Virus record (IMG/VR): IMGVR_UViG_3300045004_000088
Span: 192,001 to 253,983 of that record
Direction: 5' to 3' (one strand)
Source: a virus
DNA: 61,983 nt
The stretch's first letter is position 1, and each line of letters begins with the position of its first letter. Under the pieces are notes generated by a model that had not been told where the DNA came from, searched no databases, and was given only the letters and a program-made list of their open reading frames with translations. Position numbers and translations under genes: made by a program. Positions 7,784 through 49,936 of this stretch are shown here, in pieces.

Positions 7784-8399
7784 ATGCTCAGGGGAACACG
7801 CATCATGACCGGCGGCGAGGCCGCACGGTTCGTCGCAACCACCGACACCATTCGGGGGTATCTTCATAGCTAAGGGCTACGAAGAGATCATCGTCCCGTC
7901 AATCTGGGAACAAGAAACCTTCGTCGGAAAAGCTGGCCCGGAGATCCTCGGCCAGATGTGGACATTTCAAGACAAGGGCGAACGCAACGTGTGCCTGATT
8001 CCCGAAGTCACCGGGATCATTCAGGAACTCTACAACACCGAGTGGAAAGCCCGCCCGAAGCCCATCCGCCTCTTCTACGTCAGCCGCTGCTACAGGTACG
8101 ACCGGCCGCAAAAAGGCCGCTACCGCGAGTTCACGCAGATCGGCGTGGAGTGCCTCGGCGGAAAAGATGATCGTCAGGAGGTGATAGACCTCTTGACAGG
8201 GTGTCTCGCCCAGTTCAAACTGAACTATCGACTGGTGCCTGCGGTGAAGCGGGGACTGGCCTACTACCTAGAAGACGGTTTCGAGGTGGAGTGCGACCAA
8301 CTGGGCGCACAGAAACAGGTGGCCGGCGGCGGCAGGTACAAAGAAGGGATCGGTTGGGCCATCGGCCTCGACCGACTCATACTCGCGATGGAGGGCTAG
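7784..8399 (+). CDS. truncated histidyl-tRNA synthetase-like class II core (about 205 aa), interrupted by a +1 frameshift in a G5 run near 7855-7861
   Basis: N-terminus RGTRIMTGGEAARF...TIRG in one frame, continuing as IFIAKGYEEIIVP...MWTFQDKGER...RYDRPQKGRYREFTQ (HisRS motif 2) ...GGGRYKEGIGWAIGLDRL (motif 3) in the +1 frame. No insertion or anticodon-binding domains. The downstream ORF is 7956..8399. Confidence 0.55.
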
Positions 8400-8808: not shown

Positions 8809-9213
8809 ATGAAAGCAGTGGAATGGGCCGACAAGTTCAAGGCGGCGACGACCGAAGACGAGGTCAAGCTCGTTCTGGACGAGTACGGTCGCGAAACTGC
8901 CGAACTCGCCGCCGCGAGGTCCAAGACATCGTCGGATGTCGGGCGGTTCGGTACGATGGACGGAGCCATCAACGAGCAGCGGAACAAGTTCAAAGCCGTG
9001 ATCGGCCGCGTCCCGACACTGAACCTTGCCCAGTTCGAGGCGTTGCTGGACGTTCACGTCAAGGAATACTTCACGGCTAAGGCTGTGTACGAGAAGGCCA
9101 AAGCCGCGAAGGAGAAGGCGGCTCAAGACCCGAAGGGTCACAACAACCACGACGGCCGCAAGTTCAATCGCGGCGGGCGTGGCCCGCAAACGAATCAGCC
9201 CAAAAAGAACTGA
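8809..9213 (+). CDS. hypothetical protein (134 aa)
   Basis: RBS GAGAGG before the ATG. Confidence 0.5.
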   Translation: MKAVEWADKFKAATTEDEVKLVLDEYGRETAELAAARSKTSSDVGRFGTMDGAINEQRNKFKAVIGRVPTLNLAQFEALLDVHVKEYFTAKAVYEKAKAAKEKAAQDPKGHNNHDGRKFNRGGRGPQTNQPKKN

Positions 9214-9596
9214 CTTGACGGGTAGAGACTACGAAAAGACTCCGCAACGATCACATTATGATCTCTGCGGAGTCTTGGCACTTCATTGATCTTGTACCAC
9301 CTGAGACTGCCGATGTCGTCGTTCGGCCAGAACCGAACGTCGGGTTCCACTTCGACGTAAAAGCGGTGGACGATCCGCTTGCTGTCTTGTGACCGGCCGA
9401 GTTTGGTGAGGGATTTGGCGCGAATGCCAGTCTCCTCTTTGAGTTCTCGGACGGCGGCTTCGTGCGGCGTTTCGCCTTTGTCCAATTTGCCGCCCGGCAA
9501 CACCAACTTGGTTTTGTCGTCACGGCGGGTGCCGATCAGAACCTCGACGGCTCCGTTGTGGCGACGGAAAACTGCTACGACTGAGGATTCAAGCAT
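9195..9596 (-). CDS. NUDIX hydrolase
   Basis: Nudix box GGKLDKGETPHEAAVRELKEETG. Confidence 0.7.
   Translation of the reverse strand: MLESSVVAVFRRHNGAVEVLIGTRRDDKTKLVLPGGKLDKGETPHEAAVRELKEETGIRAKSLTKLGRSQDSKRIVHRFYVEVEPDVRFWPNDDIGSLRWYKINEVPRLRRDHNVIVAESFRSLYPSSQFFLG
9238..9274. other. hairpin GACTCCGCA-N19-TGCGGAGTC with nested GATCA...TGATC palindrome, between convergent genes
   Basis: 9-bp inverted repeat; possible bidirectional terminator or processing site. Confidence 0.35.
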
Positions 9597-9660
9597 GGCG
9601 GTATATAATGAGTTCGAGTTAAACTAAAAGGAGACTTCAAATGAGAAACTGATTCAAGAC

Positions 9661-10158
9661 TTGCGTTCGCGATTCGACAAGTGTTTCGAGTTCTACCGCT
9701 CGCAAGTCAACTGCGTCCACGGGTCCACGACCAACGCCGGGTTCATCGACACGATCCGCGTCCCCTACAACGGCGAAAACGTTCCGATCCGAGACATGGG
9801 TTGGACCTCGCCAAAAGACAGTGTAGTCGTCGTCAGGCTCCACGATCCAGCCGCGATCCCCGCCGCGTTACAATCGATCAAGACGGCCGGTTTGACCGCC
9901 TACTCGACCAAGACCGATGTGGTCGTCACGATACCCAGACCGTCGCTCGATACAATCGAGAAGAACAAAAAGCGGTGTCGCGAACTGGCCGAAGACGGCA
10001 AGGTCGCCATGCGTAAGGTGCGACAAGAGTTCAGGGATCTTTCCAAGAAGCTGCCGGACGACGAACGCAAAGCCGTCGAAAAGCAAATTCAACAATCTCT
10101 GGACGAGGGAATAGCCAGGATCGACACCGACTGTGAAGCCAAGATCAAAACGTTCTGA
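9661..10158 (+). CDS. frr: ribosome recycling factor (RRF) homologue
   Basis: Aligns along its length with bacterial RRF: RFDKCFEFYRSQ..., VTIPRPSLDTIEKNKKRCRELAEDGKVAMRKVRQEFRD, ...DDERKAVEKQIQQ. The listed start is TTG. An ATG at 9641 with an ideal AAGGAGA spacing is one frame off. Confidence 0.7.
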   Translation: MRSRFDKCFEFYRSQVNCVHGSTTNAGFIDTIRVPYNGENVPIRDMGWTSPKDSVVVVRLHDPAAIPAALQSIKTAGLTAYSTKTDVVVTIPRPSLDTIEKNKKRCRELAEDGKVAMRKVRQEFRDLSKKLPDDERKAVEKQIQQSLDEGIARIDTDCEAKIKTF

Positions 10159-10163
10159 GGTGC

Positions 10164-10385
10164 GTGATGTCTATACCGGGCAACTCTTTCATCGGCGTGG
10201 TCCTGCTGTGGCTTGTCCACGGCGGGAGCCTCGTTCACAGCTATCGCGTTGGCACCGACATCCCTCACTGGGTTTTGGTTTCGGGCGACGGAACGGTAAG
10301 ACACTTCGCGCCGACACAGGACTTGTTCGACCCTCCACTCAGTCACGTCTTATACCTCGGCCGCTTCGAGGCGGTCGAAAACTAA
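10164..10385 (+). CDS. hypothetical protein with hydrophobic N-terminus (73 aa)
   Basis: ORF followed by a terminator. Confidence 0.4.
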   Translation: MMSIPGNSFIGVVLLWLVHGGSLVHSYRVGTDIPHWVLVSGDGTVRHFAPTQDLFDPPLSHVLYLGRFEAVEN

Positions 10386-10410
10386 CCCCGGCCATTCGGC
10401 GGGGTTTTTT
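10386..10410 (+). terminator. rho-independent terminator CCCCGGCC-ATTC-GGCGGGG followed by TTTTTT
   Basis: GC hairpin plus T6. A second hairpin CCCCGGAA-GATT-TTCCGGGG follows at 10417-10436. Confidence 0.7.
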
Positions 10411-10510
10411 CTTGTACCCCGGAAGATTTTCCGGGGGTGGCTATATACATGGAGCTTCTTTATGAAGGCCGAGAAGTCATCTCAGGCAAGACAAAACCGC
10501 GAGGAGCATT

Positions 10511-11116
10511 ATGAACGATTTCGGCCGAAACGACTTTACCAACACGCTCAGGGTGTTGTTGGAAGGTAAGCCAGCAGATAGCAAACCGGAAATTGCCGAT
10601 TTCCAGGGTACGGCAGCGACCCAAGACGCAGGCGACAAGAAAAGTCAGCAAAAGACCGAGAAGCAAATCAGCGGATTGCTCGTTGACTTCGAGAACAAAT
10701 GGAACGAAGCGAAAGAGAACATTCGCACCGCACTCGCCAACTGCAAGAAGGCAGTAGAAGCCCACCAAGCGAACACCGCCGGCGCAAGCATCAACAACAA
10801 GGCGACGACCGACGCCGCAGCTAAGGCAGCGGTCATGGGCAACTTGGACGACAAGCGTGCGGGGCGGCTCGCGACCGCGACTCCGGGCAGCCAGATGGAA
10901 CCGGGGCAGAGCAGGACTGATAGCGGCATTTTGAAGCAAGCTACGTTCGGCGACGAACTGGCCGGTCTTCCTGCAACCACAAAGATCTCGAAGGCTGCTG
11001 GATCGGTTAAGCAAGCCGGCGACGACTTCAAGGCTCTGGGCGGCAAGGGCGGGGTGTCCCCGACCACGGCGCGTGCCGGGTTGTCAAAGAAATTCCCCAA
11101 GCCGAAGAAGAAGTGA
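10511..11116 (+). CDS. hypothetical Ala/Lys-rich low-complexity protein (201 aa)
   Basis: RBS GAGGAG before the ATG. Confidence 0.5.
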   Translation: MNDFGRNDFTNTLRVLLEGKPADSKPEIADFQGTAATQDAGDKKSQQKTEKQISGLLVDFENKWNEAKENIRTALANCKKAVEAHQANTAGASINNKATTDAAAKAAVMGNLDDKRAGRLATATPGSQMEPGQSRTDSGILKQATFGDELAGLPATTKISKAAGSVKQAGDDFKALGGKGGVSPTTARAGLSKKFPKPKKK

Positions 11117-11124
11117 GGAGCGAA

Positions 11125-11835
11125 ATGACAGACTTTTCCAAGATTCTCGAAGAGATCGTTTCACTCGAACAACAGGTTTTGAACGAAGGCCGACCGCGTG
11201 CGACACCACCGTTCGACCCGACTGCGGGCGTGGAAAACGGTTCCACCGAAGCGAGCCGTTCGTCGGCTTCTCTTGTCATCAAGGAATTGAAAAACTTGAG
11301 GAAGTCCATCGAGAAGTACCTGAAGGAAGTGGACGAAAAACTGATGCCGATTCTCGAAACGGCAAAGACGAACCTCGGCGCGATCCACAAGCAGTTCGCC
11401 GGTTTGATGCACCTGACGGACGAGCAGAAGCAACACATCGAAGCGATCACGAAGATGGCGAACCGCCGCATCGATTCGCTGAAGGAAACTGTTGCCGAAC
11501 TGACGAAGAAGTCGGCCGGAAGCGAAGAGAAGGAAGCTGAAGTCGCACGTCTCACGGCCAGAGTCACAAAGCTCGAAGGGGATTTGTCGGCGAAGGAAGC
11601 CGAGATGGAGACTCAGCGTGTCGGGTACGAAGAGGCTCTCGACTACTACGAGAGCATCATGATCAAGATGAAGAAAGCCCAGATGGAAGCCGAACGTCAC
11701 CTCAGAAACATGGAGGTCGAGCTTGGCATGGAGTCCACCGCCAAGAAGGGCAAGGTTCTTTCGGAATCGACCCGGCCGACGCTCAGGGACTACTTCGAGA
11801 AAAAGAAGAAGACCAAAGACGAATACGACTGGTGA
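11125..11835 (+). CDS. coiled-coil protein (236 aa)
   Basis: Internal ATG after the GAGGAG RBS; the listed first ATG lies within the RBS. Confidence 0.5.
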   Translation: MTDFSKILEEIVSLEQQVLNEGRPRATPPFDPTAGVENGSTEASRSSASLVIKELKNLRKSIEKYLKEVDEKLMPILETAKTNLGAIHKQFAGLMHLTDEQKQHIEAITKMANRRIDSLKETVAELTKKSAGSEEKEAEVARLTARVTKLEGDLSAKEAEMETQRVGYEEALDYYESIMIKMKKAQMEAERHLRNMEVELGMESTAKKGKVLSESTRPTLRDYFEKKKKTKDEYDW

Positions 11836-11841
11836 TCGAAA

Positions 11842-11867
11842 GGCCCGCTTATTTGCGGGCCTTTCTT
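11842..11867 (+). terminator. rho-independent terminator GGCCCGC-TTATTT-GCGGGCC followed by TTTCTT
   Basis: 7-bp GC stem and T-rich tail. Confidence 0.7.
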
Positions 11868-11881
11868 GCATAGATACCTAC

Positions 11882-12286
11882 ATGAAAAGCTGGAAAGAGT
11901 GGCAGGACGAGAAACCCGCTCAAGCCGCTCCCCCGACCAAGAAGTGGAAAGCCACCAAAGCCCAGATCATGGGCTTCTGGCAACGCACGCGCCCCGACGC
12001 GCCAATCACCATGACGCCGATCCCTTACGACCACAAGGGATCGACATACGAGAAGGACGGCATCCGCGTCACCGGGAGCAAAGAGTTCATAACTTCGACC
12101 ATCGCGCGGTTGAAGGAATTCTTGGCTTACGAGAACCCGGAGACGAAGTTGATGTTGGTTTACCGAGAAACCCAACCGGCCGTGAACCCCGGCGACCACG
12201 CGACGTATGTCTTCTATTTGCAAGCAAAACAAAGGGGAAAGAAGTCTAAAGCCCCTTCTTCCGACACGTCTTCTCCCGCGACCTGA
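11882..12286 (+). CDS. hypothetical protein (134 aa)
   Basis: Internal ATG after the terminator; the listed longer ORF overlaps the upstream gene. Confidence 0.45.
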   Translation: MKSWKEWQDEKPAQAAPPTKKWKATKAQIMGFWQRTRPDAPITMTPIPYDHKGSTYEKDGIRVTGSKEFITSTIARLKEFLAYENPETKLMLVYRETQPAVNPGDHATYVFYLQAKQRGKKSKAPSSDTSSPAT

Positions 12287-12324
12287 ATCAAACTGAAGAA
12301 AAAGGTATTTGACTTCTAGTTTTC

Positions 12325-12333
12325 TGCTACAAT
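12325..12333 (+). promoter_or_regulatory. extended -10 element TGCTACAAT upstream of csrA (TTGACT 13 nt upstream)
   Basis: TGnTAcaAT match; the -35 spacing is short. Confidence 0.3.
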
Positions 12334-12410
12334 CAAATTGAGGGCCATGCCCGGTACAAGCGTTAGCCGGCGATTCGGCTGGCTAGGCAGAAAGCCAACT
12401 GGAGGATACC

Positions 12411-12593
12411 ATGCTCGTACTGAGTCGCAAGAAGGGTGAAAAGATCATCATCAACGAGAACATCGTGATTGAGGTGATCGAAATCAAGAACAAACAGATC
12501 CGTCTCGGATTTGAAGCCAACAAAGACATCCCCATCCGCCGGGCCGAAGTTCCCGCCCGCGAAGTCCCGCAGCAGCCGGCAGCTACCAAATGA
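12411..12593 (+). CDS. csrA: carbon storage regulator CsrA homologue (60 aa)
   Basis: MLVLSRKKGEKIIINENIVIEVIEIKNKQIRLGFEANKDIPIRRAEV matches the CsrA fold signature. Strong RBS GGAGGA. Confidence 0.85.
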   Translation: MLVLSRKKGEKIIINENIVIEVIEIKNKQIRLGFEANKDIPIRRAEVPAREVPQQPAATK

Positions 12594-12602
12594 GCTTACA
12601 CG

Positions 12603-12628
12603 GGGCGGTCAACAAAATGACCGCCCCG
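12603..12628 (+). other. hairpin GGGGCGGTCA-ACAAAA-TGACCGCCCC after csrA (terminator-like, no T-tract)
   Basis: 10-bp perfect stem. Confidence 0.4.
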
Positions 12629-12708
12629 CCGGAAATCTCACCCTGATCCAACGGTTTTTGACTATACTGTCGGACGCCGTTGGCAGGTTCGTCTATTGGG
12701 AAGAAGCA

Positions 12709-13140
12709 ATGAAAGGCTTGAAGATGAAGGAAATCGTTCCAGGGTTGTTTCAGGGCAACCACCCGCGTGTCCTGCCCCCGAACGGCATCGACGCCATTCT
12801 CAACGTCGATTTCACTGACGCCAAGTACGAAACCAAGAAACTCCTCGGTTACACCCACAAGCCCATCCTCGACGGCCGCGATCCGGGCGAGGGCTGGCTC
12901 CGAGATGCCGTTGACACCATTCAACGCTACATCAACAATGGGTGGACGACCTACATCCACTGTCAGGCGGGGATTTCTCGCAGCGTGTTCGTCACGGCCG
13001 CGTACCTCGTCCGCGAACACGGGATGACACCGAAGGACGCCGTCAGTCTGATCAACTCGAAGACCAAGATCGCCGACCCCGCGCCGGCCTACCTTCTGGC
13101 TCTGGAAAAGCTGTACAAGCAGAACCAACCCACCGAGTAA
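12709..13140 (+). CDS. dual-specificity / tyrosine protein phosphatase
   Basis: CX5R P-loop HCQAGISRS; the upstream part of the listed ORF overlaps csrA. Confidence 0.7.
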   Translation: MKGLKMKEIVPGLFQGNHPRVLPPNGIDAILNVDFTDAKYETKKLLGYTHKPILDGRDPGEGWLRDAVDTIQRYINNGWTTYIHCQAGISRSVFVTAAYLVREHGMTPKDAVSLINSKTKIADPAPAYLLALEKLYKQNQPTE

Positions 13141-13148
13141 GGTGACCC

Positions 13149-13571
13149 ATGCTACAAGACGTAGAACAAATCCTCGACTTCTGGGAATCGCAGGGAATCC
13201 TCAAGGACAACCCCGACCGCATCAAGATCGCTTGGATGGTCGAGTCGCAGCGGCGTGTCAACAAGTGGATCATCGACACCGCCCGAAAGCAAAACCGCCA
13301 GCACTACATGGACCGGACGGTCATTCACACGCTCCTGTCCGCGATCATGTACATCGGCGAACATCACCCGGCCGTATTCGCGAACACGCTCGACTTCCGA
13401 GACTGCTCCGACGTGTACTGTCTGGGTCCGTGGCCGCGCGGCGACTGGGACGACCGGCGAAAGAAGATCGCCATGCGGGTATCAACCCTCGGCGCGTCAC
13501 TCAACAGGCCGTTGATCTTCGGCGGGTTCACGTTGAAGGATGGTCGGATTTACCTGCTTGCAGCAGGCTGA
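13149..13571 (+). CDS. hypothetical protein (140 aa)
   Basis: ORF in the array. Confidence 0.5.
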   Translation: MLQDVEQILDFWESQGILKDNPDRIKIAWMVESQRRVNKWIIDTARKQNRQHYMDRTVIHTLLSAIMYIGEHHPAVFANTLDFRDCSDVYCLGPWPRGDWDDRRKKIAMRVSTLGASLNRPLIFGGFTLKDGRIYLLAAG

Positions 13572-13854
13572 CTTTCCTGAGAAGGGTCGAAAACATTTGA
13601 CGCCGCCGCGACGGATCGGGTTCCGACACGGCGGCGTCCGCGTCTTCCTCCAGTTGATTCAACTTGACCACCACTTCGCGAACGAAACCCCGCTCGTCCG
13701 GGTCGTCGGCCTTTTCGAGAGCCGCCGAAACGCTCTGTTTGAAACGTGTGACGTGGGGTAAAATGTCCAGACCGGCAGAATTGTTGCTGCCAAGAGCAAC
13801 TAACACTCGACCAATGTAGCGTTCGGCCGTAGATAGATCGTCGGCGATGTCCAT
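13528..13854 (-). CDS. hypothetical acidic helical protein (about 108 aa)
   Basis: Minus ORF filling an otherwise empty 314-nt gap; the protein-like portion starts at MDIADDL. Confidence 0.3.
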   Translation of the reverse strand: MDIADDLSTAERYIGRVLVALGSNNSAGLDILPHVTRFKQSVSAALEKADDPDERGFVREVVVKLNQLEEDADAAVSEPDPSRRRQMFSTLLRKVSLLQAGKSDHPST

Positions 13855-13885
13855 CCAGCGGGTGAATTCGATCATGAAGGTATCT

Positions 13886-14701
13886 ATGAAGATCGTCCTA
13901 AAGACGCCTGAACAGATCGAGGGCATTCGGCGAAGTTCACAGGCGGCGATCCGAGTCCTGAAACGGGTCAAAAACTACCTGCTGCCGGGAATGAAGACAA
14001 TCGAGATCAACAACATCATCGACGCCTTCATTCGCAAAGAGAAATGCACCCCCGCCACCCTCGGCTACAGAGGGTTCCCCGCTTCGTGTTGCATCAGCGT
14101 CAACAACGGAATCTGCCACGGAGTACCCAACCAAAAGGTACTCGCGCTCGGCGACGTGGTCAAGATTGACGTGACCACGATCCTCGACGGCTACTACGGC
14201 GACACCTGCTACACATGGATCATCGGCCCGCCCTCTCCAGAAGCCTCCAGAATCGTTTTTGCGGCCAAGAAGTGTTTGTGGGCAGGAATCCACGCCGTGA
14301 AGCCCGGATTGCCTCTGGGAGCGATTTCTAGGGCCGTGAGAGGCACCGCTGACAGCTTGGGCTGCTCGGTAGTCCATCAGTTCTGCGGTCACGGTGTCGG
14401 GTTGGAGTTCCACGAAGACCCGATGGTCCCTTACGATTCGACAGAAGGTCCGAAGTGGCCGATAATTAGGCCGGGGATGACCTTCACGATTGAGCCGATG
14501 ATCAACCTCGGCCGGGCCGAAGCGATAATTGACGGCTCAGACGGCTGGTCATCTTACACCGTAGATGGTAAACTGTCGGCCCAATTCGAGCATACCGTTC
14601 TTGTTACAGAAACGGGCGTCGAAGTTCTCACCGATTGGGGCGACGAAACAACGATGCTGCCGAACTGGAAGATACCGGAGGAAGTATGTCCGTCACGCTA
14701 A
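13886..14701 (+). CDS. map: methionine aminopeptidase type I
   Basis: Motifs CHGVPN, D...YYGD and HGVGLEFHEDP (metal ligands). Internal ATG with AAGG RBS gives the canonical N-terminus MKIVLKTPEQIEGIRRS. Confidence 0.9.
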   Translation: MKIVLKTPEQIEGIRRSSQAAIRVLKRVKNYLLPGMKTIEINNIIDAFIRKEKCTPATLGYRGFPASCCISVNNGICHGVPNQKVLALGDVVKIDVTTILDGYYGDTCYTWIIGPPSPEASRIVFAAKKCLWAGIHAVKPGLPLGAISRAVRGTADSLGCSVVHQFCGHGVGLEFHEDPMVPYDSTEGPKWPIIRPGMTFTIEPMINLGRAEAIIDGSDGWSSYTVDGKLSAQFEHTVLVTETGVEVLTDWGDETTMLPNWKIPEEVCPSR

Positions 14702-15759
14702 CCGCCGAACAGAAAGACGTGGTCAAGAAGATCGCCAAGAACGTTAAGTCTGGACACGAGCAAGTCCAGACTTTGGGCGGTTATGCCGGCACCGGCAAAA
14801 CCACGATCACGGCGATGCTCAACCACATCTTCCCGAACTTCGCCACCTGTGCCTTCACCGGCAAGGCAGCGAGCGTCATGCGCAACAAGGGCATGCTCAA
14901 CTCGCAGACGATCCACCGTACCATCTACTACCCCGTTCGCGGGGAAGACAACAAGATGGAGTTCTGGCCCAAGACCATCGGCATGCTCGGCGGCATCGAC
15001 GGTTTCCTTGTGGATGAAGCGTCGATGGTTGCGAAGGAAGAGTACACCAATCTGCTCTCCTACGGGCTGCCCATCGTCTTCATCGGCGACCACGGGCAGC
15101 TTGAGCCGGTCGGGTCGGACATCAACGTGATGAAAGACCCGATGTACAAGCTGGAAACGATTCACCGCAACGCTGGCGAGATCGCGTGGTTCGCGGACCA
15201 CATCCGCAAGGGCGGCGACCCGTGGGACTTCGAGTCCAAAGAAAAGGTTCAGATCGCGCACGCATCTGAGGCCACCGACGACATCATCCTCGGCACCGAC
15301 CAGATCCTCTGCGCCTTCAACAACACCCGCAAGGGCGTCAACAACAACGTCCGGCGGCTCCAGAAACGCGGGCCGACCGTCGAAAAGGGCGACCGCGTCA
15401 TCTGCCTCCGCAACAACAAGGTTGACGGGGTCTTCAACGGCATGCAAGGAACGGTATACGAAGTGAGTCTCAAGAAGAAGAAGATCACCATCGACATGGA
15501 CGACGGCGAGCGGAAGAACGACCTCCCGTTCTGGCCTCAGCAGTTCGATTCAGAAACCACGCTGGCGGATGTTGATTACCAGATCAACCTGTTCGACTTC
15601 GGCTACTGCATCACTGCGCACAAGTCGCAGGGCAGTGAGTGGGATAACATGGTGGTGTACGAACAGATCTGCAAGAAGTGGGATCACACGCGGTGGGCGT
15701 ACACTGCGGCCAGCCGCGCCAAAGGCAACCTCATTTGGCTGTGTCAGAAGAAGAGGTGA
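14686..15759 (+). CDS. Dda/RecD-like SF1 DNA helicase
   Basis: Motifs GYAGTGKTT, DEASM, GDHGQLEPV, ITAHKSQGSEWD and YTAASRAK. Confidence 0.85.
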   Translation: MSVTLTAEQKDVVKKIAKNVKSGHEQVQTLGGYAGTGKTTITAMLNHIFPNFATCAFTGKAASVMRNKGMLNSQTIHRTIYYPVRGEDNKMEFWPKTIGMLGGIDGFLVDEASMVAKEEYTNLLSYGLPIVFIGDHGQLEPVGSDINVMKDPMYKLETIHRNAGEIAWFADHIRKGGDPWDFESKEKVQIAHASEATDDIILGTDQILCAFNNTRKGVNNNVRRLQKRGPTVEKGDRVICLRNNKVDGVFNGMQGTVYEVSLKKKKITIDMDDGERKNDLPFWPQQFDSETTLADVDYQINLFDFGYCITAHKSQGSEWDNMVVYEQICKKWDHTRWAYTAASRAKGNLIWLCQKKR

Positions 15760-15762
15760 TCC

Positions 15763-16035
15763 GTGTGGAAGAACACCTACCGAGCGGGTGACGACTACCT
15801 GCAAGAAAACGTCAGGATGAAGAAATGGATTAACCAGTGCTTCCGTTGTCAGGATCAAGGGTACAAGCCTGAGATGCCTGACGACGAAGTTGATCCCAAG
15901 TTCAAGAACATCCGATACCGCTTTAAGTGTCTTCCGTTAAATGCGGACGGCCTTTGTGACGTTTGCGCCGAACACGATATAAATAAAGGACCAATATCGT
16001 GGGAGGACAAACTTGGAGAACGTACTGATCAGTGA
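15763..16035 (+). CDS. zinc-finger protein (90 aa)
   Basis: GTG start after GAGGTG; CFRC...CDVC. Confidence 0.4.
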   Translation: MWKNTYRAGDDYLQENVRMKKWINQCFRCQDQGYKPEMPDDEVDPKFKNIRYRFKCLPLNADGLCDVCAEHDINKGPISWEDKLGERTDQ

Positions 16036-16696
16036 CATTCACCTCGGCAGCGACGTGTGTCAGGCCGACGATCTTTGCCATTTGCTCAAATCGCTCGATC
16101 CTAAGAAAACCCGCCGGCTCATCATCGTCGGTGACATTTTCGACTCAATCGATCTCAGAAGGCTCAAGAAAAAGCACTGGAAAGTGCTGTCACACATCCG
16201 CCGACTGGCCGATCAAATAGAGGTAGTCTGGCTCGCGGGCAACCACGACGGCCCGGCCGAAATCATCTCGCACCTGCTCGACGCGACCGTCTACGAAGAG
16301 TACATCTTCGAGAGCGGCGACAAAAGGTTCCTGACGCTTCACGGCCACAAGTACGACAAGTTTATCGCGGAACGACCCATCCTGACCGCCATCGCGGACT
16401 GGTTCTACGGCCTGTTCCAGAAACTGGACAGGTCGCACTACATCGCGCGGATGGCGAAGCACAACAGCAAGCACTACCTCCGCAACCACGAAACGGTTCG
16501 AGACAACTCGTGCAAGGAAGCTTACTACGAAGGGTGCTACGGCGCGATCTGCGGCCACACCCACTACGCCGAGATCACCGACGTGACGGTCAAAGACAAA
16601 CAGATCCGCTACGGGAACACCGGCTGTTGGACCGAGAAGCCGGCAACGTACATCGTGATCGATCACGGCGAAATGAGACTCGAAACCGTGGCGTAG
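16013..16696 (+). CDS. calcineurin-like metallophosphoesterase
   Basis: Motifs ISDIHLG, GDIFD, GNHD and GHTH; TTG start with GGGAGGA RBS. Confidence 0.75.
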   Translation: MENVLISDIHLGSDVCQADDLCHLLKSLDPKKTRRLIIVGDIFDSIDLRRLKKKHWKVLSHIRRLADQIEVVWLAGNHDGPAEIISHLLDATVYEEYIFESGDKRFLTLHGHKYDKFIAERPILTAIADWFYGLFQKLDRSHYIARMAKHNSKHYLRNHETVRDNSCKEAYYEGCYGAICGHTHYAEITDVTVKDKQIRYGNTGCWTEKPATYIVIDHGEMRLETVA

Positions 16697-18501: not shown

Positions 18502-19161
18502 TCACAGGTATAGGTCGCGGACCTTGTTGAGTCGGTTCTCCAGTTCGGCGAGTTCCTTCTTCGCCGCCTCGACCTTCTGTTCGGTCGCGTCGAGGAAGTC
18601 GTCGTAGGTCACCCACTGGAACCGCTTCATCATGTCCATCAGCGTTTCGACCGGCACGCCGTGGGTGTTTTTCTGGTGAAGGAAGGTGGCGACAGTCGAG
18701 ATCAGGTAGCTGTCGCGTTCCGACTCTTTTTGTTTCAAGAGCGGCAGCACCTTGTCGGTCCACCACTCCGAGTCCGGGTACGCGAAGTACACGTTGTAGT
18801 TGTGGTCCACGGCCACATCGAGGTAGTAGCGAAACGCCTGAAGCGAGATGTTCGTGTTGTCGATGATGATCGCCTTCTGCTTCTCCTTCATCGCCTTCTG
18901 CTTCTCCTTCATCGCCTTCAGGCACTTCGATTCGCAGTCCCGGTGGCCGAGGTGCGCACGCTCCCGCGACCAGTTCTTCCGGTACTCCTCCCCCTCGCCG
19001 TAGAAGTGGTCGGCCGACAGTATCAATCCGCCGACCTGAGCCGCGATGCGGCCGGCGCGGTGCGTCTTGCCGCACCCCGGCACCGCCCGCATGATGTAGA
19101 GGTCGTTGGCCTCTTGCGACCGATGTCCGGGCATGAACAGAACGGTGTTGGAAACTTTCAT
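18502..19161 (-). CDS. P-loop polynucleotide 5'-kinase-like protein (T4 Pnk kinase-domain-like)
   Basis: Walker A AVPGCGKT and IIIDNTN; contains the duplicated heptapeptide MKEKQKA. Confidence 0.65.
   Translation of the reverse strand: MKVSNTVLFMPGHRSQEANDLYIMRAVPGCGKTHRAGRIAAQVGGLILSADHFYGEGEEYRKNWSRERAHLGHRDCESKCLKAMKEKQKAMKEKQKAIIIDNTNISLQAFRYYLDVAVDHNYNVYFAYPDSEWWTDKVLPLLKQKESERDSYLISTVATFLHQKNTHGVPVETLMDMMKRFQWVTYDDFLDATEQKVEAAKKELAELENRLNKVRDLYL
18871..18920. repeat. 21-bp tandem duplication (2.4 copies) inside the kinase gene
   Basis: cgccttctgcttctccttcat repeated head-to-tail. Confidence 0.6.
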
Positions 19162-19985: not shown

Positions 19986-20891
19986 TTAGTTGCCGTGCCT
20001 TGTTTCGATGAACCTTATGGTGCCGCTGGTGGACCGCATGAACACGCTGTGCGTGATCGGGCCGGCTTTGGTGTGCCTGACGCCTCGGAGCATCGACCCG
20101 TTGGTGATGCCGGTTGCGGTGAAGCAACACGGTCCTTTGACGAGATCTTCGGCGTGGTAAACTTTTTCCCCGACGCCCACGGGCCAGAGTTGGGCTTGGA
20201 ATACGCCGCCCATGCACTTGATCGCCGCCGCCGTGATGACCGCTTCTGGAGCGCCACCCGCACCATATTGTATGTCGATCCCCGATTCGGGGAGACAGGT
20301 GGCGATGGCCGCGCTCACGTCGCAGTCTTGAATGAGCTTCAGTTTGACGCCGAGGCGTCGGGCGACGGCGATGAACTCGTCGTGACGCGGACGCTTGAGC
20401 ATGCAGACGGTGAGGAGGTGGAGCGGCTTGTTCAACCAGTCGGAGGCCGTCCTGAGATTGGATTCGAGGCCGTCCGCGAGGTTGATGCCCGATTTGGCGA
20501 GTTCCGGGCCGCAGGCCAACTTGAGCATGTAGTGTTCTTCGGTCGTGAACATGGTGTTGTGACCGGAGAAGGCCATGACGCTCATGGCTTCGGTGCCGCC
20601 CTCGGAAGTGGGGGTCGTGCCGTCAATCGGATCGACGGCGATGTCGTACTGAGTCTCTTTGCCGCCCCCGACGAACTCGCCCTGAAACAGTCCGGCGGCA
20701 CCGTCCTTCTTACCCTCGCCGATCTGGATCTCGGCGCGGATGTCCATCGAGTCGAGGCGGTTCCGCATGGCGTCGGTCGCCCACTTGTCGGCCGAAAGTT
20801 TGTCGCCGCTGCCGACCCAACGTGAAGCCCCGATTGCGGCGGCTTCGGTGACGCGGACCATTTCGAGGCCAATGTTCTTGAGGAGATCCAT
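19986..20891 (-). CDS. glpX: fructose-1,6-bisphosphatase class II (GlpX)
   Basis: MVRVTEAAAIGASRWVGSGDK...IGEGKKD...DIAVDPIDGT aligns with the GlpX N-terminus and metal site. Confidence 0.85.
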   Translation of the reverse strand: MDLLKNIGLEMVRVTEAAAIGASRWVGSGDKLSADKWATDAMRNRLDSMDIRAEIQIGEGKKDGAAGLFQGEFVGGGKETQYDIAVDPIDGTTPTSEGGTEAMSVMAFSGHNTMFTTEEHYMLKLACGPELAKSGINLADGLESNLRTASDWLNKPLHLLTVCMLKRPRHDEFIAVARRLGVKLKLIQDCDVSAAIATCLPESGIDIQYGAGGAPEAVITAAAIKCMGGVFQAQLWPVGVGEKVYHAEDLVKGPCCFTATGITNGSMLRGVRHTKAGPITHSVFMRSTSGTIRFIETRHGN

Positions 20892-31304: not shown

Positions 31305-31322
31305 TCCCGAATGGGGGCGTCA

Positions 31323-32846
31323 ATGAAGTCTTTTTATATCACGACCGCCATCGACTACCCGAACGCCGAGCCGCACATCGGCACCGCGTTCGAGAAAGTC
31401 GGTGCGGACGTACAGGCCCGTTTTCAGAGGTTCGTCGGCCGTCAGGTTTATTTCCTGATGGGCAACGACGAGAACACACAGAAGGTGGCTAAAGCCGCCG
31501 CCAAGAAGGGCCAAGACGTTCAGGTTTACGCCGACGCGATGGCGGGCAATTTCCGTCACGCTTGGCGTTCGCTCGACATCACCCAGAGCCGCTTCTGTCA
31601 AACGTCCTCACCGGAACACCACAAGTTCTGTCAGGATTTTTTGCAGAAGGTGTTCGAGAACGGCCACATCTACTCCAAGCACTACGAAGGCTTGTACTGC
31701 CCGGAGTGCGAGGAGTACAAGCTGTCTGTTGTCAACGGGGAGTGTCCGCAGCACCCCGGCCCCAAGCTCCAGACCCGGAGCGAGCAGAACTATTTCTTCG
31801 CCCAGTCGCGGTTCAAGGAAGAGATCCTGAAGCTGTACGAAGAGAAAAAAATCAAGGTCATTCCAGAATACCGTCAAAACGAACTGCTCAACTTCGTACA
31901 GTCTGAAAAGGACATTTCGATCAGCCGGTCCAATCAGGGATGGGGCATTCCGGTCCCGTGGGACTCTTCGCAGGTTATCTACGTCTGGTTCGACGCCCTA
32001 CTCAATTACCTGTCGTTCGCGAACGGGAACTGGCCGGCTGACGTTCACGTCATCGGTAAGGACATCGTCCGGTTCCACGGCGCGTTGTTCCCGGCCATGA
32101 TCTTGGCTTACAACTCAGACCCGCAGAAGAAGGGTTACCCGAAGATCCCGCTGCCTCACACGATCTTCTCGCACGGGTTCGTGTGTCGGAAGACGGACAA
32201 CGGGTTGACCAAGTTCAGCAAATCGTCGGGTGACGCCCTCGGCCCGTCCGCACTCGTGCAGGTGTTCGGGTCGGACGCCTATCGATACCTGTTCATGAAG
32301 TCGGCCAACTTCTCCGAGGACGCCGAATACTCCTTCGGGATCTTCGCCGAGACGTACAACGCCGATCTGGTCAACAAGTACGGGAACCTGTTTAGTCGGG
32401 TATGTCGCCTCGCCGCGACCAAACTCGACTGTAAGATTCCCGCGCCGCAGAATCCGCTCGAAGGGGTGAAGTTCGCGTGGTGGCACCGCGACATGGCGGC
32501 GTTCAATTACCGTGACGCACTCGTGACCTGCATGGACGTGATCGACACCACGAACAGGTATCTCGAAGACCGCAAGCCGTGGGCGGAAGACGCGGTAGAC
32601 GTTCCAGAGACAATCGCGGTTGCGGCGCATACCCTGAAGATCATCTCGGCATTGTTAGCCCCGGTGATGCCGGACAGCAGCCGCGAGATCTGGCAGACGC
32701 TGACCTACGAGGGCCAGCCGTGTTTCGACATGGCCGGTCTGGAACATCTGGAAGAGTTCATCTCAAACAAACTGCCCTTGACAGTAGATCAAAAAAAGGT
32801 AAAAGAGGGTAAGGTGAATATCCTGTTCCCTCGCTACAAGGGCTGA
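31323..32846 (+). CDS. metG: methionyl-tRNA synthetase catalytic core (no C-terminal tRNA-binding domain)
   Basis: HIGH-type PHIGT; zinc knuckle CPECEEY...CPQH; KMSKS-type KFSKS; N-terminus aligns with MetRS. Confidence 0.9.
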   Translation: MKSFYITTAIDYPNAEPHIGTAFEKVGADVQARFQRFVGRQVYFLMGNDENTQKVAKAAAKKGQDVQVYADAMAGNFRHAWRSLDITQSRFCQTSSPEHHKFCQDFLQKVFENGHIYSKHYEGLYCPECEEYKLSVVNGECPQHPGPKLQTRSEQNYFFAQSRFKEEILKLYEEKKIKVIPEYRQNELLNFVQSEKDISISRSNQGWGIPVPWDSSQVIYVWFDALLNYLSFANGNWPADVHVIGKDIVRFHGALFPAMILAYNSDPQKKGYPKIPLPHTIFSHGFVCRKTDNGLTKFSKSSGDALGPSALVQVFGSDAYRYLFMKSANFSEDAEYSFGIFAETYNADLVNKYGNLFSRVCRLAATKLDCKIPAPQNPLEGVKFAWWHRDMAAFNYRDALVTCMDVIDTTNRYLEDRKPWAEDAVDVPETIAVAAHTLKIISALLAPVMPDSSREIWQTLTYEGQPCFDMAGLEHLEEFISNKLPLTVDQKKVKEGKVNILFPRYKG

Positions 32847-45693: not shown

Positions 45694-47778
45694 ATGCCGC
45701 CGCTGATCAAAGTCGGGGACCAGCCGACGCTGGTTCCCACTTCCAAGTACCCATACGCCACGTTCCCGTTCGCGAACTTCAACCCGGTCCAATCCGCCGT
45801 CTTCGAGTTTTACGACAAGGACTGCAACGCGGTCATCGCCGCCGCGACCAGTGCCGGCAAGACGGTCGTCGGCGAGATGTTCGCGAACCACGAAATCCAA
45901 GTCCGCAAAGGTACGTTCATGTACCTTTGCCCGCTCCGCGCACTCGCCCAAGAGAAGATCGATGACTGGACCGATCCGAGCCACCCGTTCAGCAAGAAGA
46001 AAGTCTCGATCTGCACCGGCGACTACCGCCTGACCCCCGAACGGAAGAAGGAACTGGCGGAAGCCGATGTCATCATCATGACATCCGAGATGCTCAACCA
46101 CCGCTGCCGCAACTTCAACAGCGAGGGCAACGCCTTCCTGAAGAACATTGGCACCATCGTCATTGACGAGAGCCATCTGCTCACCGTTCCGGGTCGCGGC
46201 GACCACCTCGAAGTCGGCCTGATGAAGCTGACGAAGATGAACCCGAACTGCCGCATCATCATGCTCTCGGCGACCATGCCCAACGTGGACGAAATCGCCG
46301 AGTGGGTCAGTTACAGCCTCACCGGGCGGGAAACCTACGTTCTTGTTTCCAAGTACCGCCCCTGCCCGCTCACGACCCACTTCGAGAACTACGACGACAG
46401 CGGGGACTACTACGAGCAGAAGGAAGAGTCCAAGATCGCGCGGGCGATGGAGATCGTCAAATACTACCCCAACGACAAGTTCCTGATCTTCTGCCACACG
46501 AAACGAACCGGCGAAAACATGTCGGAAGAGTTGAAGAGTGCCGGCATCAAGAACGAGTTCCACAACGCGGACTTGGACAAGGAAAAGCGGATCTCGCTCG
46601 AAAAGCGGTTCAAGACCGACCCGGACCTGAAGGTCGTTGTCGCCACGTCCACGCTGGCGTGGGGCGTGAACCTGCCGAGCCGTCGCGTGATCGTCTTGGG
46701 CGTCCACCGTGGCATCCAAGAGGTGCCGACCTACGACATCTTCCAGATGATCGGTCGTGCCGGGCGTCCGGCTTACGACCCGGCCGGTGACGCCTACATC
46801 CTCGTTCCGCTTTCTCAAGGGGCCGCTTGGCGGGCCAAGCTCAAAGCACAGCAACGCATCGACAGTCAGCTTCTGGAGAACGTCGGCGGGGTTCACAAGA
46901 CGATGGCGTTCCACGTCGTGTCGGAGATCTTCCACGGCGGCATCACCAACATGGACGAGATGCGGAAGTGGTACGAGCGGACGCTCGCCCACTTCCAGAG
47001 CAACGAACTCGATGACGTGGTCGCGGACGGCGTGATCAAGTCGCTCAAGGACTGTTACGCCATCAACGTCGAAGACGACGAGTTCACCGTCTCGACCATC
47101 GGCAAGATCAGCAGCCTGTTCTACTTCAGCCCGTTCGACGTGAGCCACCTGAACAAGAACTTCGGCAAGATGTTCAAAAGCGGCCACGAAACCGACGACC
47201 TTCGTGTCGCGCTCGCTCTCGGTGACATCGACAGCAACCGCCTCGGCTTCATTAGTCGAGCCGAACGGGAAGAGATCAGTGCATTCGAGCGTCGTCTCTC
47301 GGCCATTCCCGACCTGTTCAAAGAGACAAAGGCGAAGGACGGCGAAGAGGGCAAAGAGAAGCAACGCACGCTCAAGGACGGGTGCGTCAAGGCCGCGTAC
47401 CTCTATTACAGCCTTTTGACCGGGAGTCCGACCAAGATGCTGGCCGGTGCTTTGCGGGGGCTGAAGTTCGACGCTCCCCGCGTACTTCAGGTCGTTCAGG
47501 CACTGGACGCTCTGGGTGGCAAGAAGTGGGGCAAGGGTGACTTCCTCAGCGGGCTGGAGAAACGTATCACCTACGGCGTGCCGCCGCATCTCGTCGGTCT
47601 GGTAGGGTTGCCGAACCTCGGAGCGGTTCGCGCGAACAATCTCTACAAGGCCGGCATCAAGACGATGGACGATCTCGCCGCCGCGAAGCCTGAAGACGTG
47701 GTCAAGATCACCAAGATGAGTCGCAAGATGGTTGACGAACTCATCGAAGGTGCCAGCGTCAAGTCGATGATGGAGTGA
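45694..47778 (+). CDS. Ski2/Hel308-like SF2 helicase
   Basis: Motifs AATSAGKT, DESH, SAT and QMIGRAGR; C-terminal HhH-like region. Confidence 0.85.
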   Translation: MPPLIKVGDQPTLVPTSKYPYATFPFANFNPVQSAVFEFYDKDCNAVIAAATSAGKTVVGEMFANHEIQVRKGTFMYLCPLRALAQEKIDDWTDPSHPFSKKKVSICTGDYRLTPERKKELAEADVIIMTSEMLNHRCRNFNSEGNAFLKNIGTIVIDESHLLTVPGRGDHLEVGLMKLTKMNPNCRIIMLSATMPNVDEIAEWVSYSLTGRETYVLVSKYRPCPLTTHFENYDDSGDYYEQKEESKIARAMEIVKYYPNDKFLIFCHTKRTGENMSEELKSAGIKNEFHNADLDKEKRISLEKRFKTDPDLKVVVATSTLAWGVNLPSRRVIVLGVHRGIQEVPTYDIFQMIGRAGRPAYDPAGDAYILVPLSQGAAWRAKLKAQQRIDSQLLENVGGVHKTMAFHVVSEIFHGGITNMDEMRKWYERTLAHFQSNELDDVVADGVIKSLKDCYAINVEDDEFTVSTIGKISSLFYFSPFDVSHLNKNFGKMFKSGHETDDLRVALALGDIDSNRLGFISRAEREEISAFERRLSAIPDLFKETKAKDGEEGKEKQRTLKDGCVKAAYLYYSLLTGSPTKMLAGALRGLKFDAPRVLQVVQALDALGGKKWGKGDFLSGLEKRITYGVPPHLVGLVGLPNLGAVRANNLYKAGIKTMDDLAAAKPEDVVKITKMSRKMVDELIEGASVKSMME

Positions 47779-49936
47779 CCCACGGCCAGCCCGCAAGTGT
47801 GATAACGTCCGACTGCGGGCAGCAGTGTGCGTCGTGTTCGCTCGGAAAGACCTCGCTGTTGAAGTTCCACTTCTCGGCGAGGTCTTTCCGCATGTAGGTG
47901 GCCTCGATTGTGTCGGGGGTCATAGTGTCCCCGATCCACCCGTAGCCGCCGCAGTTGTTCGGGTGCGCATGAACGAGCTTGAACCTGTTGTTGATTGTTT
48001 GCAGGTATCGAATTTTGTCGTTCATGTTCTTCTTGTTCATGATCCCGTGCAACTCGATCATGATCACCTCGAACCGCGACAGGATCTTCGGATCGGTAAT
48101 TCTCAGTGTCTCCCACTCTGAATTTTCGATGTCGATTTTCAACCACATCCGTTTGCCATTCGCCGTCTTCGAGTGATCCAGCATCGTCTGGATCGAGTGT
48201 CCATCGACACCGATCCCGATTGGGAAGAACTCCGCGCCGGCCGGGATTTCTTCGGGTATGGCCTTAGAGTCGAACATTTTGATTTTGGCCCGACTCAGTT
48301 TTGCGAACTCTTTCTCGAAGTCGGAGTTGTTCCCGATTCCGGCCGAGATCAGGTAATCGACGTTCTGGATGTCCAGATCAGGCACGACGTAGCCGCCGTC
48401 GTTCTTCGAGCCGATCCTCTTTTTTAGCACCGGGCATTCGTACACGACGAGTTCTTTCAGAAGTCTGTGGCCTCTGTTTTGTCCTTTACGCAGCATCGCT
48501 TGCATCCCGTGCGTGACCTGAACGGGAACTTCGGGGAGGATTTCGTTGACCGCACGTTTGACACCCGGACAGCGTCCCCAGTTGTAGTCGTCAAGGATGA
48601 CCACGCCGTTTTCTACCATCTTCGGCCAGACCCATAGAAGTGCGTCCCGCGTTGATTGGTAGGTGTCGAAATCCAAGTGCGCGAAGGAGAAGGTCAGGTT
48701 GTCGAGATCTTTTGCCGTGTCGGGGAACCGGCCCGGATGTATCGAGACTTTGCACCCTGCCAAGAATTCGGTGACTTCGCTGAGGTTGCTCGCGAATTCG
48801 CCCTGCTTGTGTCCGGCGGGTTCTTGGTCGTCTTCAGGAATGCCCATCTCGAACCCGTCGAACATGTAGAGCGTTTTATTCGGAGCCGCGTAGGAGATAA
48901 GTTTGGCTGTGCCGCCGCGATAACACCCGCATTCAACCATGTCCCCCGGCAAGTTAGCGGTAGCAATCACAGAGTCTTGAATTACTTTCAGTCGGCCGGG
49001 GTCAACGAGGCTGCGGTCAGCAGTAATTTCGGACGGCATTTCGGCTATGTCCAAGATTGCGCCGGCGGCATCGATTGCGGCCGTTTTGAGCATTGCCATG
49101 CACATGGGAATGTTGCTGTGGTATTGATCCACGACCGGCAATGCACATTTCCTGTCAGATTCGCCGCCCACGACGATGCTTTTCCAACACCCGTTGCTCT
49201 TGCAACACGGCAACAGCCCTTGTGTGCTGAGGCTGATTTGGGTCGGGTAGCCGATCCAACTGATCGGTTCCCTGCCGCCGATCATGCAGATGTACGGTTT
49301 GCTGAATCCGGCCATGAAGTGGCCCAACGCTGTTATGCCGCCGATTCCGAAAGTAGCTCCGTGGCACAGTCGTAGCAGTTCCCTGAGAGTTGTTTGGCCG
49401 ATGAGGTTGATCGTGTCGTGTAGGGGCGGGTGGTTGTCTTTGGCCGCGCCGACTTGTACGAACCTGATCCGGTCCTTGTAGGTGTCCACTACGGACTGGT
49501 ACAGTTCGGTGCCGGCCCATTTTGCGGGGTAATCGTCCTTGTACCCCGCGTTGATTATTGCGTATGGTCCGTATTCTCCTGTCTTCTCGTTGAAAACCGA
49601 GAAGGTCTTTTCGGCAGCAGACAGGTAGAAGTGCGGCCTCGAAACTTGGAGCCTGAGCGGTAGCCCCAGAATATCGCCTAGGTGGTCGCAAAAGGCCGAT
49701 CCGAAGTGAAACGGGATGTGTGACTCGTTAATGCGGTCGTACCGCATGTCGATGTATTCACACTCCGCAGCACTCATCGGAGTTACCCACGGGTTGTTCG
49801 CGAACAGTTCGTTGTGGTTGGTCTGCATGTTCGTTAAGAACTTGCCGGGGAACTGTCGGTGCAAGCTTTCCAGAGCCATCGTAACTATGGCTACGTCGCC
49901 CGGACACAGACCGTGATTCAACAACAACTTTCTCAT
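47759..49936 (-). CDS. three-domain fusion: GT9 heptosyltransferase-like glycosyltransferase, TylF-like SAM O-methyltransferase, and a C-terminal methyltransferase-like domain
   Basis: GT9 N-terminus GDVAIVTMALESLHRQFP and C-terminus GATFGIGGITALGHFMAGFSKPYICMIGG. TylF motifs DMVECGCYRGGTAKL and VILDDYNW. ATGA-coupled to the upstream Ser-rich gene. Confidence 0.65.
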   Translation of the reverse strand: MRKLLLNHGLCPGDVAIVTMALESLHRQFPGKFLTNMQTNHNELFANNPWVTPMSAAECEYIDMRYDRINESHIPFHFGSAFCDHLGDILGLPLRLQVSRPHFYLSAAEKTFSVFNEKTGEYGPYAIINAGYKDDYPAKWAGTELYQSVVDTYKDRIRFVQVGAAKDNHPPLHDTINLIGQTTLRELLRLCHGATFGIGGITALGHFMAGFSKPYICMIGGREPISWIGYPTQISLSTQGLLPCCKSNGCWKSIVVGGESDRKCALPVVDQYHSNIPMCMAMLKTAAIDAAGAILDIAEMPSEITADRSLVDPGRLKVIQDSVIATANLPGDMVECGCYRGGTAKLISYAAPNKTLYMFDGFEMGIPEDDQEPAGHKQGEFASNLSEVTEFLAGCKVSIHPGRFPDTAKDLDNLTFSFAHLDFDTYQSTRDALLWVWPKMVENGVVILDDYNWGRCPGVKRAVNEILPEVPVQVTHGMQAMLRKGQNRGHRLLKELVVYECPVLKKRIGSKNDGGYVVPDLDIQNVDYLISAGIGNNSDFEKEFAKLSRAKIKMFDSKAIPEEIPAGAEFFPIGIGVDGHSIQTMLDHSKTANGKRMWLKIDIENSEWETLRITDPKILSRFEVIMIELHGIMNKKNMNDKIRYLQTINNRFKLVHAHPNNCGGYGWIGDTMTPDTIEATYMRKDLAEKWNFNSEVFPSEHDAHCCPQSDVITLAGWPWVTPSST

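Follow-up and report, generated by a model that had tools for sequence, protein, structure and literature searches.

In a stretch of viral DNA of 61,983 nucleotides (positions 192,001 to 253,983 of the IMG/VR record IMGVR_UViG_3300045004_000088; hereafter, the window), positions 9661 to 14701 carry four genes of cellular type. These genes encode a divergent ribosome recycling factor (RRF; 9661-10158, + strand), a CsrA/RsmA-family RNA-binding protein (12411-12593, +), a dual-specificity, Cys-based phosphatase (DSP; 12709-13140, +) and a type Ia methionine aminopeptidase (MetAP; 13886-14701, +). Judging from the sequences, we consider it probable that a clade of T4-like huge phages captured these genes and has kept them within a conserved stretch of replication and early genes, where they would belong to at least four units and where the RRF would be translated by re-initiation after a leader. 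Sequence comparison establishes the identities of the four genes, the intact catalytic or binding residues of their products, the purifying selection acting on them and their conserved order. The direction in which each gene would affect the host is what we infer, and it is reasonable to infer that the phage would remodel host translation.

An earlier note on this DNA had proposed all four identities (an RRF homologue, a clear CsrA homologue, a CX5R phosphatase next to csrA and a MetAP), and each is borne out by profile comparison, for the RRF and CsrA at the level of the Pfam family and not of the NCBIfam equivalog. The RRF, which has 165 amino acids when counted from TTG 9661 (ATT 9652 is another possible start), scores 76.5 bits against Pfam PF01765 (gathering score 29.7) over profile positions 9-161 of 164, and 59.5 bits against the equivalog TIGR00496, which is under the cut-off of 149.1. 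The solved RRFs of Aquifex, Thermus and E. coli match it with E values of 1e-13 to 1e-11. An AlphaFold (AF2) model built from six family sequences (mean pLDDT 89.9) has the L-shaped two-domain fold, with a three-helix bundle (residues 2-24, 104-136 and 141-172) and a beta/alpha/beta domain (41-98), and a Foldseek search of the PDB with this model returned only RRFs among the top 26 matches, with TM scores of up to 0.87. The arginines R126 and R129 of helix 3 are invariant in the family alignment and identical to the Thermus residues, and we take this pair to be aligned with Arg129 and Arg132 of E. coli. With the fold and the helix-3 arginines kept, the protein would be expected, from what is known of the family, to bind the A/P region of the 50S subunit.

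The CsrA protein, of 60 amino acids, scores 69 bits against PF02599 (gathering score 27) and matches phrog_9500 with E = 1.5e-16. It remains under the equivalog cut-offs of TIGR00202 (57.4 versus 70.1) and NF002469 (56 versus 73), and the C-terminal helix region is absent from it, replaced by a Pro-rich tail that varies across relatives. Residues 1-50 align without a gap to RsmE and E. coli CsrA across the five beta strands, with beta1/beta5 segments MLVLSRKKGE...IPIRRAEV in which L4, R6 and R44 are kept; according to mutational studies, the RNA-binding residues of beta1/beta5 are L4, R6/R7, R44 and E46. Because the RRF and CsrA both fall short of the NCBIfam equivalog cut-offs, they should be regarded as divergent family members and not as orthologue-grade copies. 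The DSP (143 amino acids) scores 61.9 bits against PF00782 (DSPc; gathering score 33.5), and both its P-loop IHCQAGISRS, of the form HCX5R(S), and its general-acid Asp (PILDGRD) align with those of DUSP10. A start at TTG 12511, which would overlap csrA, was rejected, and the true start is ATG 12709 or 12724. The MetAP (271 amino acids, start corrected to ATG 13886) exceeds the equivalog cut-off of TIGR00500 (270.7 versus 171.35 bits) and aligns from end to end with the P. aeruginosa (4JUQ) and E. coli enzymes, with all five metal ligands (D, D, H, E, E).

The order orf134b-CsrA-DSP-orf140-orf115-MetAP-Dda is identical in four diverged relatives. These are a Logan contig whose RRF is 83% identical to that of the window (L007), ENA/Logan contigs (L008/L009; RRF 54% identical), a 262 kb JGI contig (L014; RRF 52% identical) and a 586 kb contig in an NCBI metagenome-assembled genome (MAG) assembly, from which the RRF is absent (L013). 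Identities among the relatives are 80-90% for CsrA and 68-88% for MetAP. L013 keeps the CsrA-DSP-MetAP block and has in the place of the RRF an unrelated open reading frame (ORF) of 149 amino acids, which was rejected as an RRF (hhalign probability 0.3%), and in L014 the RRF lies 9 kb from the CsrA block with a glycosyltransferase insert between them. The RRF is the less stable part of the conserved stretch. The insert itself (L014 1892-6737) is a sugar-modification cluster with a DegT aminotransferase, a hexapeptide transferase, WbqC and two glycosyltransferases. Between the window and L007, the two closest phages, the ratio of nonsynonymous to synonymous substitution rates (dN/dS) is 0.06-0.15 for all four genes (0.13 for the RRF), and on these estimates all four are under purifying selection; in distant pairs dS exceeds 1, with saturation of the synonymous sites. 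Constraint is strongest on CsrA and orf134b (dN of about 0.13-0.16) and weakest on the RRF and the DSP (about 0.35-0.48).

The phage RRFs form a tiny clade. Among 5.8 billion protein clusters, we found six close relatives (54-99% identical) and one distant match of bacterial type. A scan of IMG/VR with the RRF profile gave no relatives, and a scan of JGI metagenomes added just two members of the clade (L015 and L016). The RRF is 23-29% identical to cellular RRFs, and tblastn of GenBank phages gave matches at this level alone, annotated as frr or within bacterial-looking records, which look like host contamination and not like phage relatives.

The window contains a gp32-like single-stranded DNA-binding protein, UvsX, a UvsW-like helicase, a Dda-like helicase, a DnaB/gp41-like helicase and a family A polymerase (PolA), and we consider it to be the T4-like replication/early region of an uncultivated huge phage with a genome of at least 476 kb. 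The longest contig with a 99%-identical RRF (P0001) has 475,914 bp, metagenome contigs from JGI and Logan, of 140 kb and of the 0.2-1 Mb class, encode exactly this CsrA protein, and GenBank phages gave no nucleotide match to the 5 kb in a megablast search. The four genes all belong to cellular families, one of the related contigs sits in an NCBI MAG assembly, and large plasmids with similar gene sets are mentioned by Al-Shayeb et al. 2020 (PMC7162821); the region could on these grounds be taken for part of a bacterial chromosome or megaplasmid, with the four genes as ordinary housekeeping genes. We regard such a mistake as extremely improbable in view of the T4-type gp32, UvsX, UvsW, Dda and gp41-like genes, of the matches to Gp23 and T4 baseplate proteins in the relatives, of the related contigs of 262-533 kb that IMG/VR files as viral, and of the majority of ORFs that have no cellular family; moreover, the RRF and CsrA do not reach orthologue-grade cut-offs.

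The earlier note had described the four genes as a module within 5 kb. They do lie on the + strand at the positions given above, but a terminator, six intervening ORFs and the variable linkage of the RRF speak against the module. The six ORFs among the named genes have no family: orf73 (10164-10385, +; called in JGI/Logan contigs, with homologues in L007, L008, L013 and L014), orf201 (10511-11116, +; weakly conserved, no Pfam or PHROG match), orf240 (11113-11835, +; JGI start 11125; coiled-coil-like, no significant family, 28-63% conserved), orf134b (11882-12286, +; strongly conserved), orf140 (13149-13571, +; conserved in position, 31-64% identity) and, on the minus strand, orf115 (13528-13875; called in JGI/Logan contigs, 40-78% conserved). 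The four genes are thus not contiguous, and the stretch holds both an opposite-strand gene and an internal terminator. The latter, an intrinsic terminator CCCCGGCC..GGCGGGG followed by T6 (10384-10412, +; fold of -14.2 kcal/mol), ends the RRF-orf73 unit. Together with the conserved -10 element and the hairpin around csrA, and with elements of their own before the units, it argues for several transcription units and not for an operon, and we predict at least four separate units for the four genes. In a generic scan, promoter-like sites of the sigma-70 type are no commoner in the region than by chance, and the promoter motif TTTGACT is not enriched (11 observed versus 8.5 expected). That all four genes nevertheless form one co-regulated module or operon, which jointly reprograms translation, as was the first reading, would agree with their location within 5 kb on one strand, with a neighbourhood that is kept in relatives and with the other translation genes nearby. 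However, related phages are syntenic genome-wide, and therefore conserved order alone is no proof of functional linkage. Six unrelated ORFs are interspersed, one of them on the opposite strand; the terminator and the separate promoter-like elements split the stretch; the RRF is missing from L013 and displaced by 9 kb in L014 while the rest is in place; and the gene coupled to the MetAP encodes a DNA helicase. Accordingly, we find a single module quite unlikely. The helicase in question, a Dda/RecD-like SF1B enzyme (14686-15759, +; phrog_325, 263.7 bits), overlaps the MetAP stop by 16 nt, and the two genes are probably co-translated.

The RRF gene has a peculiar leader. A -10-like element, TATATAAT (9602-9609, +), whose function is putative, is identical in L007, L016 and L014 and degenerate in L008, L011 and L012. 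It is followed by a strong Shine-Dalgarno (SD) sequence, AAGGAG (9628-9633, +), and, 7 nt 3′ of this, by the ATG of a mini-ORF of three codons, ATG AGA AAC TGA (M-R-N-stop; 9641-9652, +), whose final base also opens an in-frame ATT (9652-9654). In the clade, seven RRF loci have the 5′ end available (the window, L007, L016, L011, L008, L012 and L014), and all seven have an SD-like purine run at the equivalent place, a mini-ORF ATG AGA RAY TRA, and an in-frame AUU or AUC that begins on the final base of the stop (TGATT, TAATC or TAATT). The RRF-frame codons after the overlap vary synonymously (ATT/ATC, CAA/CAG). This leader is the sole intergenic SD plus mini-ORF in the window, no such combination was found near the start of any of 70 distant RRF loci, and the leader RNA has unusually little structure (z = +1.9; 199 of 200 shuffled sequences are more structured).

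The called RRF start, TTG 9661, has no usable SD and begins 9 nt past the mini-ORF stop, that is, after a gap of 8 nt, a spacing that is found in most loci of the clade. In L014, the TTG has been lost by a deletion of three codons; the RRF frame is intact there, with no ATG, GTG or TTG near the N-terminus, and the gene caller found only a fragment of 84 amino acids. Therefore, the TTG cannot be the universal RRF start. The product that begins at the TTG is about 9 N-terminal residues shorter than the solved RRFs, and the modelled extension is helical. The conservation of N/D-E-K/R-L 5′ of the Ile was not used in support of this extension, because the mini-ORF frame could by itself give rise to it. 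Frameshifting or hopping out of the mini-ORF to reach the frame of the RRF was also considered and rejected, since no slippery site is common to all loci: AAC-to-AAA slippage is workable in the window and L007 only, the others allow AGAGA +2 slippage only, and the take-off and landing codons required for hopping do not match across the leaders. The arrangement is that of a termination-reinitiation gene, with an upstream ORF that has its own SD and a stop that overlaps or lies near an SD-less start, and we consider translation of the RRF by termination-reinitiation from the leader ORF to be most likely on this pattern. Ribosomes would load on the three-codon ORF via its SD, translate it and terminate, and the RRF would be made by post-termination ribosomes that re-initiate either at the AUU/AUC overlapping that stop or at the UUG close by, which has no SD.

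The RRF decides the fate of post-termination ribosomes, and therefore a feedback loop is conceivable, in which the RRF would be made only by ribosomes that restart after the mini-ORF and its activity would set its own synthesis; we offer such self-regulation tentatively, as possible and rather unlikely. Other translation factors sense themselves in a similar manner. In infC, an AUU start is sensed by IF3, and in prfB, a frameshift at UGA is sensed by RF2. Overlapping stops and starts (UAAUG or UGAUG) that permit termination-reinitiation, and the lambda bar and AGA minigenes, are further known systems. The RRF leader resembles infC and prfB in that a translation-factor gene is preceded by a signal decoded through the step that its factor catalyses; it resembles the UAAUG/UGAUG systems in that the stop overlaps a near-cognate start (UGAUU/UAAUC), and the minigenes in that it is very short and has AGA as its second codon. 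It differs from the UAAUG/UGAUG systems in that AUG is replaced as the start by AUU/AUC or by a UUG without an SD, and dependence on RRF is proposed here from sequence. Context for self-sensing and reinitiation systems is provided in PMC2490762 and PMC9955659. No comparable leader for any frr gene was found in the literature searched or in the 70 distant loci.

Several observations weigh against the reading that we prefer. The literature on whether recycling controls bacterial re-initiation is divided: very short upstream ORFs were reported to inhibit rather than promote downstream re-initiation in E. coli (PMC9955659), and in another study RRF depletion was without effect on coupling (Saito et al. 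2020; PMC7538156). At least one relative (L013) can do without the RRF. The GGA triplet, which the earlier note suggested as a CsrA target to look for in phage 5′ untranslated regions, occurs at -60 to -21 of 80 predicted phage leaders at background density (0.016 versus 0.017 per nt), with no enrichment beyond the SD, and that suggestion gains no support from it. In the RRF protein, the EERR arginines before helix 3 are not kept and are replaced by (D/E)T(I/L)E, and the tip of the helical bundle has a deletion of 6 residues. The equivalog shortfall, the changed EERR and the shorter tip mean that the RRF may fail to cooperate with host EF-G. RRFs from other species frequently fail to function alongside a foreign EF-G or are toxic, as is the case for Thermus or Mycobacterium RRF in E. 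coli. The phage RRF could be an antagonist that sits on host ribosomes without productive EF-G cooperation and blocks recycling, or that favours re-initiation on polycistronic phage mRNAs. Its low identity to cellular RRFs, its distance from the equivalog cut-off, the shortened bundle tip and an altered N-terminus all fit such a role, but the helix-3 arginine pair and the entire two-domain fold are kept, and purifying selection is compatible with either role. We hold antagonism to be unlikely, and our preferred reading remains that the divergent RRF, with host EF-G, would clear post-termination ribosomes during infection, which is its most likely role.

The csrA gene carries its own extended -10 element and ribosome-binding site, as the earlier note had said. 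The former, TGcTACAAT (12325-12333, +), has its TACAAT kept in four of five relatives (L007, L013 and L014 included) and its TG in three of five; the latter, the SD GGAGGA (12401-12406, +), holds two overlapping GGA triplets and is present in all relatives but one. About 25 nt 5′ of this SD, the csrA leaders of three of five relatives (L007 12790-12821, L008 14757-14789, L014 9975-10000) have a GUACGGA, and in the same three leaders a conserved GGC-N5-GCC hairpin lies between GUACGGA and the SD. GUACGGA plus GGAGGA has the geometry of a dual CsrA site in these relatives, which suggests self-repression; the leader in the window has GGC and not GGA at the upstream site. An apparent constraint on csrA at the RNA level (dS of 0.26 between the window and L007) was dropped because other pairs have dS of 0.7-1.9. 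After csrA lies a GC-rich hairpin of 11 bp (12601-12628, +; -24.1 kcal/mol, z = -5.9) without a U-tract, which could be an RNA-stabilising or processing element and not a classical terminator.

The ligands of such a minimal CsrA would most likely be RNAs with GGA in the Csr/Rsm regulon of the host, and possibly also its own SD. In Serratia, CRISPR-Cas is repressed by RsmA, as shown by Campa et al. 2021 (PMC8450108), who also reported numerous RsmA/CsrA homologues encoded by phages and suggested an anti-defence role for them. The phage CsrA might likewise serve mainly for anti-defence or host takeover, by mimicking host RsmA/CsrA and repressing CRISPR-Cas or other CsrA-controlled functions, and not act on phage mRNAs. 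This explanation fits as well as any. In its favour, the RNA-binding residues are kept, CsrA is the most conserved of the four proteins, and GGA is not enriched in phage leaders; on the other hand, the GUACGGA and GGAGGA sites in the csrA leaders of several relatives suggest at least self-regulation, and we rate the takeover role as a real possibility, somewhat short of an even chance. A sponge-like RNA was not found in the window, which has no GGA-dense non-coding stretch (at most 9 per 150 nt) and no Rfam CsrB/Rsm family. The protein resembles CsrA, RsmA and RsmE, the homologues of Campa et al. 2021 and PHROG 9500 in its small size, own promoter, GGA-containing SD and L4, R6 and R44, and it differs from CsrA, RsmA and RsmE in the Pro-rich tail in place of an alpha helix, in the score under the TIGR00202 cut-off and in its fixed position beside a DSP gene. 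A tblastn search of GenBank phages with it gave nothing. Directly 5′ of csrA, orf134b is as conserved as CsrA (76-85% identity) and its family, which comprises 223 representative clusters, has no Pfam, PHROG or PDB match; more distant huge phages have orf134b without CsrA nearby.

In every relative examined, the DSP gene is directly 3′ of csrA, and it has a TATACT-like element of its own before it. Judging from the aligned residues, the enzyme is catalytically intact. On its sequence, proteins, RNA 5′ ends and lipids are all candidate substrates: the PDB matches include MKPs, PTPMT1 and the baculovirus polynucleotide 5′-phosphatase, with none clearly preferred. It shares the HCX5R(S) P-loop, the general-acid Asp and the DSPc length with DUSP/MKP, PTPMT1, the baculovirus RNA 5′-phosphatase BVP and PHROGs 10650 and 32716, and unlike eukaryote-type DUSPs it has no regulatory domain. 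Relatives of the DSP are confined to this phage clade, and we found no description of the csrA-DSP pairing in the literature searched. The MetAP would probably add capacity for N-terminal methionine excision alongside the methionyl-tRNA synthetase (MetRS) of the phage during massive synthesis of phage proteins. It resembles E. coli Map and P. aeruginosa 4JUQ in being full-length, with all ligands and a score above the equivalog cut-off, and differs from E. coli Map in being phage-encoded and overlapping a Dda helicase gene. Among GenBank phages, the nearest MetAP (48.6% identity) is that of LR756511.1, an uncultured phage of 595 kb, whose MetAP neighbourhood was rejected as a related locus since none of the other genes is common to both.

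The earlier note had also invoked tRNAs and synthetase fragments. The window has 7 tRNAs, a fragment of a histidyl-tRNA synthetase (HisRS) and a tRNA_bind domain, but the MetRS is full-length, with a catalytic and anticodon-binding core of 511 amino acids at 31311-32846. The tRNA_bind (Trbp111-like) domain, which is usually the C-terminus of MetRS, is a separate gene at 921-1298, 30 kb from the core; both match the same PHROGs (8598 and 24194), and MetRS thus appears to be split into two genes. The HisRS fragment, a class II catalytic core of 147 amino acids at 7956-8399 (PF13393 positions 55-143 of 308), is also kept as a short ORF in L007 and may be a regulatory or decoy piece and not a synthetase. 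An Rfam tRNA match at 2598-2721 (124 nt, 39.2 bits), which ARAGORN does not call even with an intron search, may be an intron-containing or degenerate tRNA. Further genes of the window include GlpX, a dCMP deaminase and two NUDIX genes. One NUDIX hydrolase (9195-9596, - strand; PF00293, 75.2 bits) is oriented divergently from the RRF, which it adjoins in L007 and L014. Near the region are a full GlpX fructose-1,6-bisphosphatase (19986-20891, -; 340 bits), a calcineurin-like metallophosphoesterase (16013-16696) and an AAA_33/polynucleotide-kinase-like ATPase (18502-19161, -), so that, in addition to the DSP, the phage has phosphoesterases of at least two unrelated types. A protein of 730 amino acids (47759-49951, -) combines TylF/Methyltransf_24 and FkbM methyltransferase domains and is unusually large for a phage methyltransferase.

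Al-Shayeb et al. 2020 (PMC7162821) list RRF among the genes of huge phages, and Campa et al. 2021 (PMC8450108) described CsrA/RsmA encoded by phages. Since both are already published, the idea of a phage that remodels translation is not new. The setting is also that of Al-Shayeb et al. 2020, a huge phage with tRNAs and aminoacyl-tRNA synthetases. The RRF resembles those phage RRFs and bacterial frr in its two-domain L fold, full profile coverage and helix-3 arginine pair; it differs from bacterial frr in the tip that is shorter by 6 residues, in the change of EERR to (D/E)T(I/L)E, and in a leader ORF in place of a canonical SD-plus-start. PHROGs already holds CsrA-like and dual-specificity phosphatase families, and MetAP is found in a handful of phage records in GenBank. 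The new elements are the conserved pairing of CsrA and phosphatase, the small separate clade of divergent RRFs, and the mini-ORF leader.

These results add a well-delimited and evolutionarily stable case of a huge phage with genes for late steps of translation and for global RNA regulators, and they indicate that such genes are kept by selection and are not recent passengers. If the phage RRF works with or against host EF-G, it would be a tool for dissecting RRF/EF-G specificity, and its leader is a potential compact natural reporter for whether ribosome recycling controls bacterial re-initiation. If the proposed self-regulation is true, the RRF leader would sense recycling much as the circuits of infC (IF3/AUU) and prfB (RF2/UGA frameshift) sense the action of their own factors.

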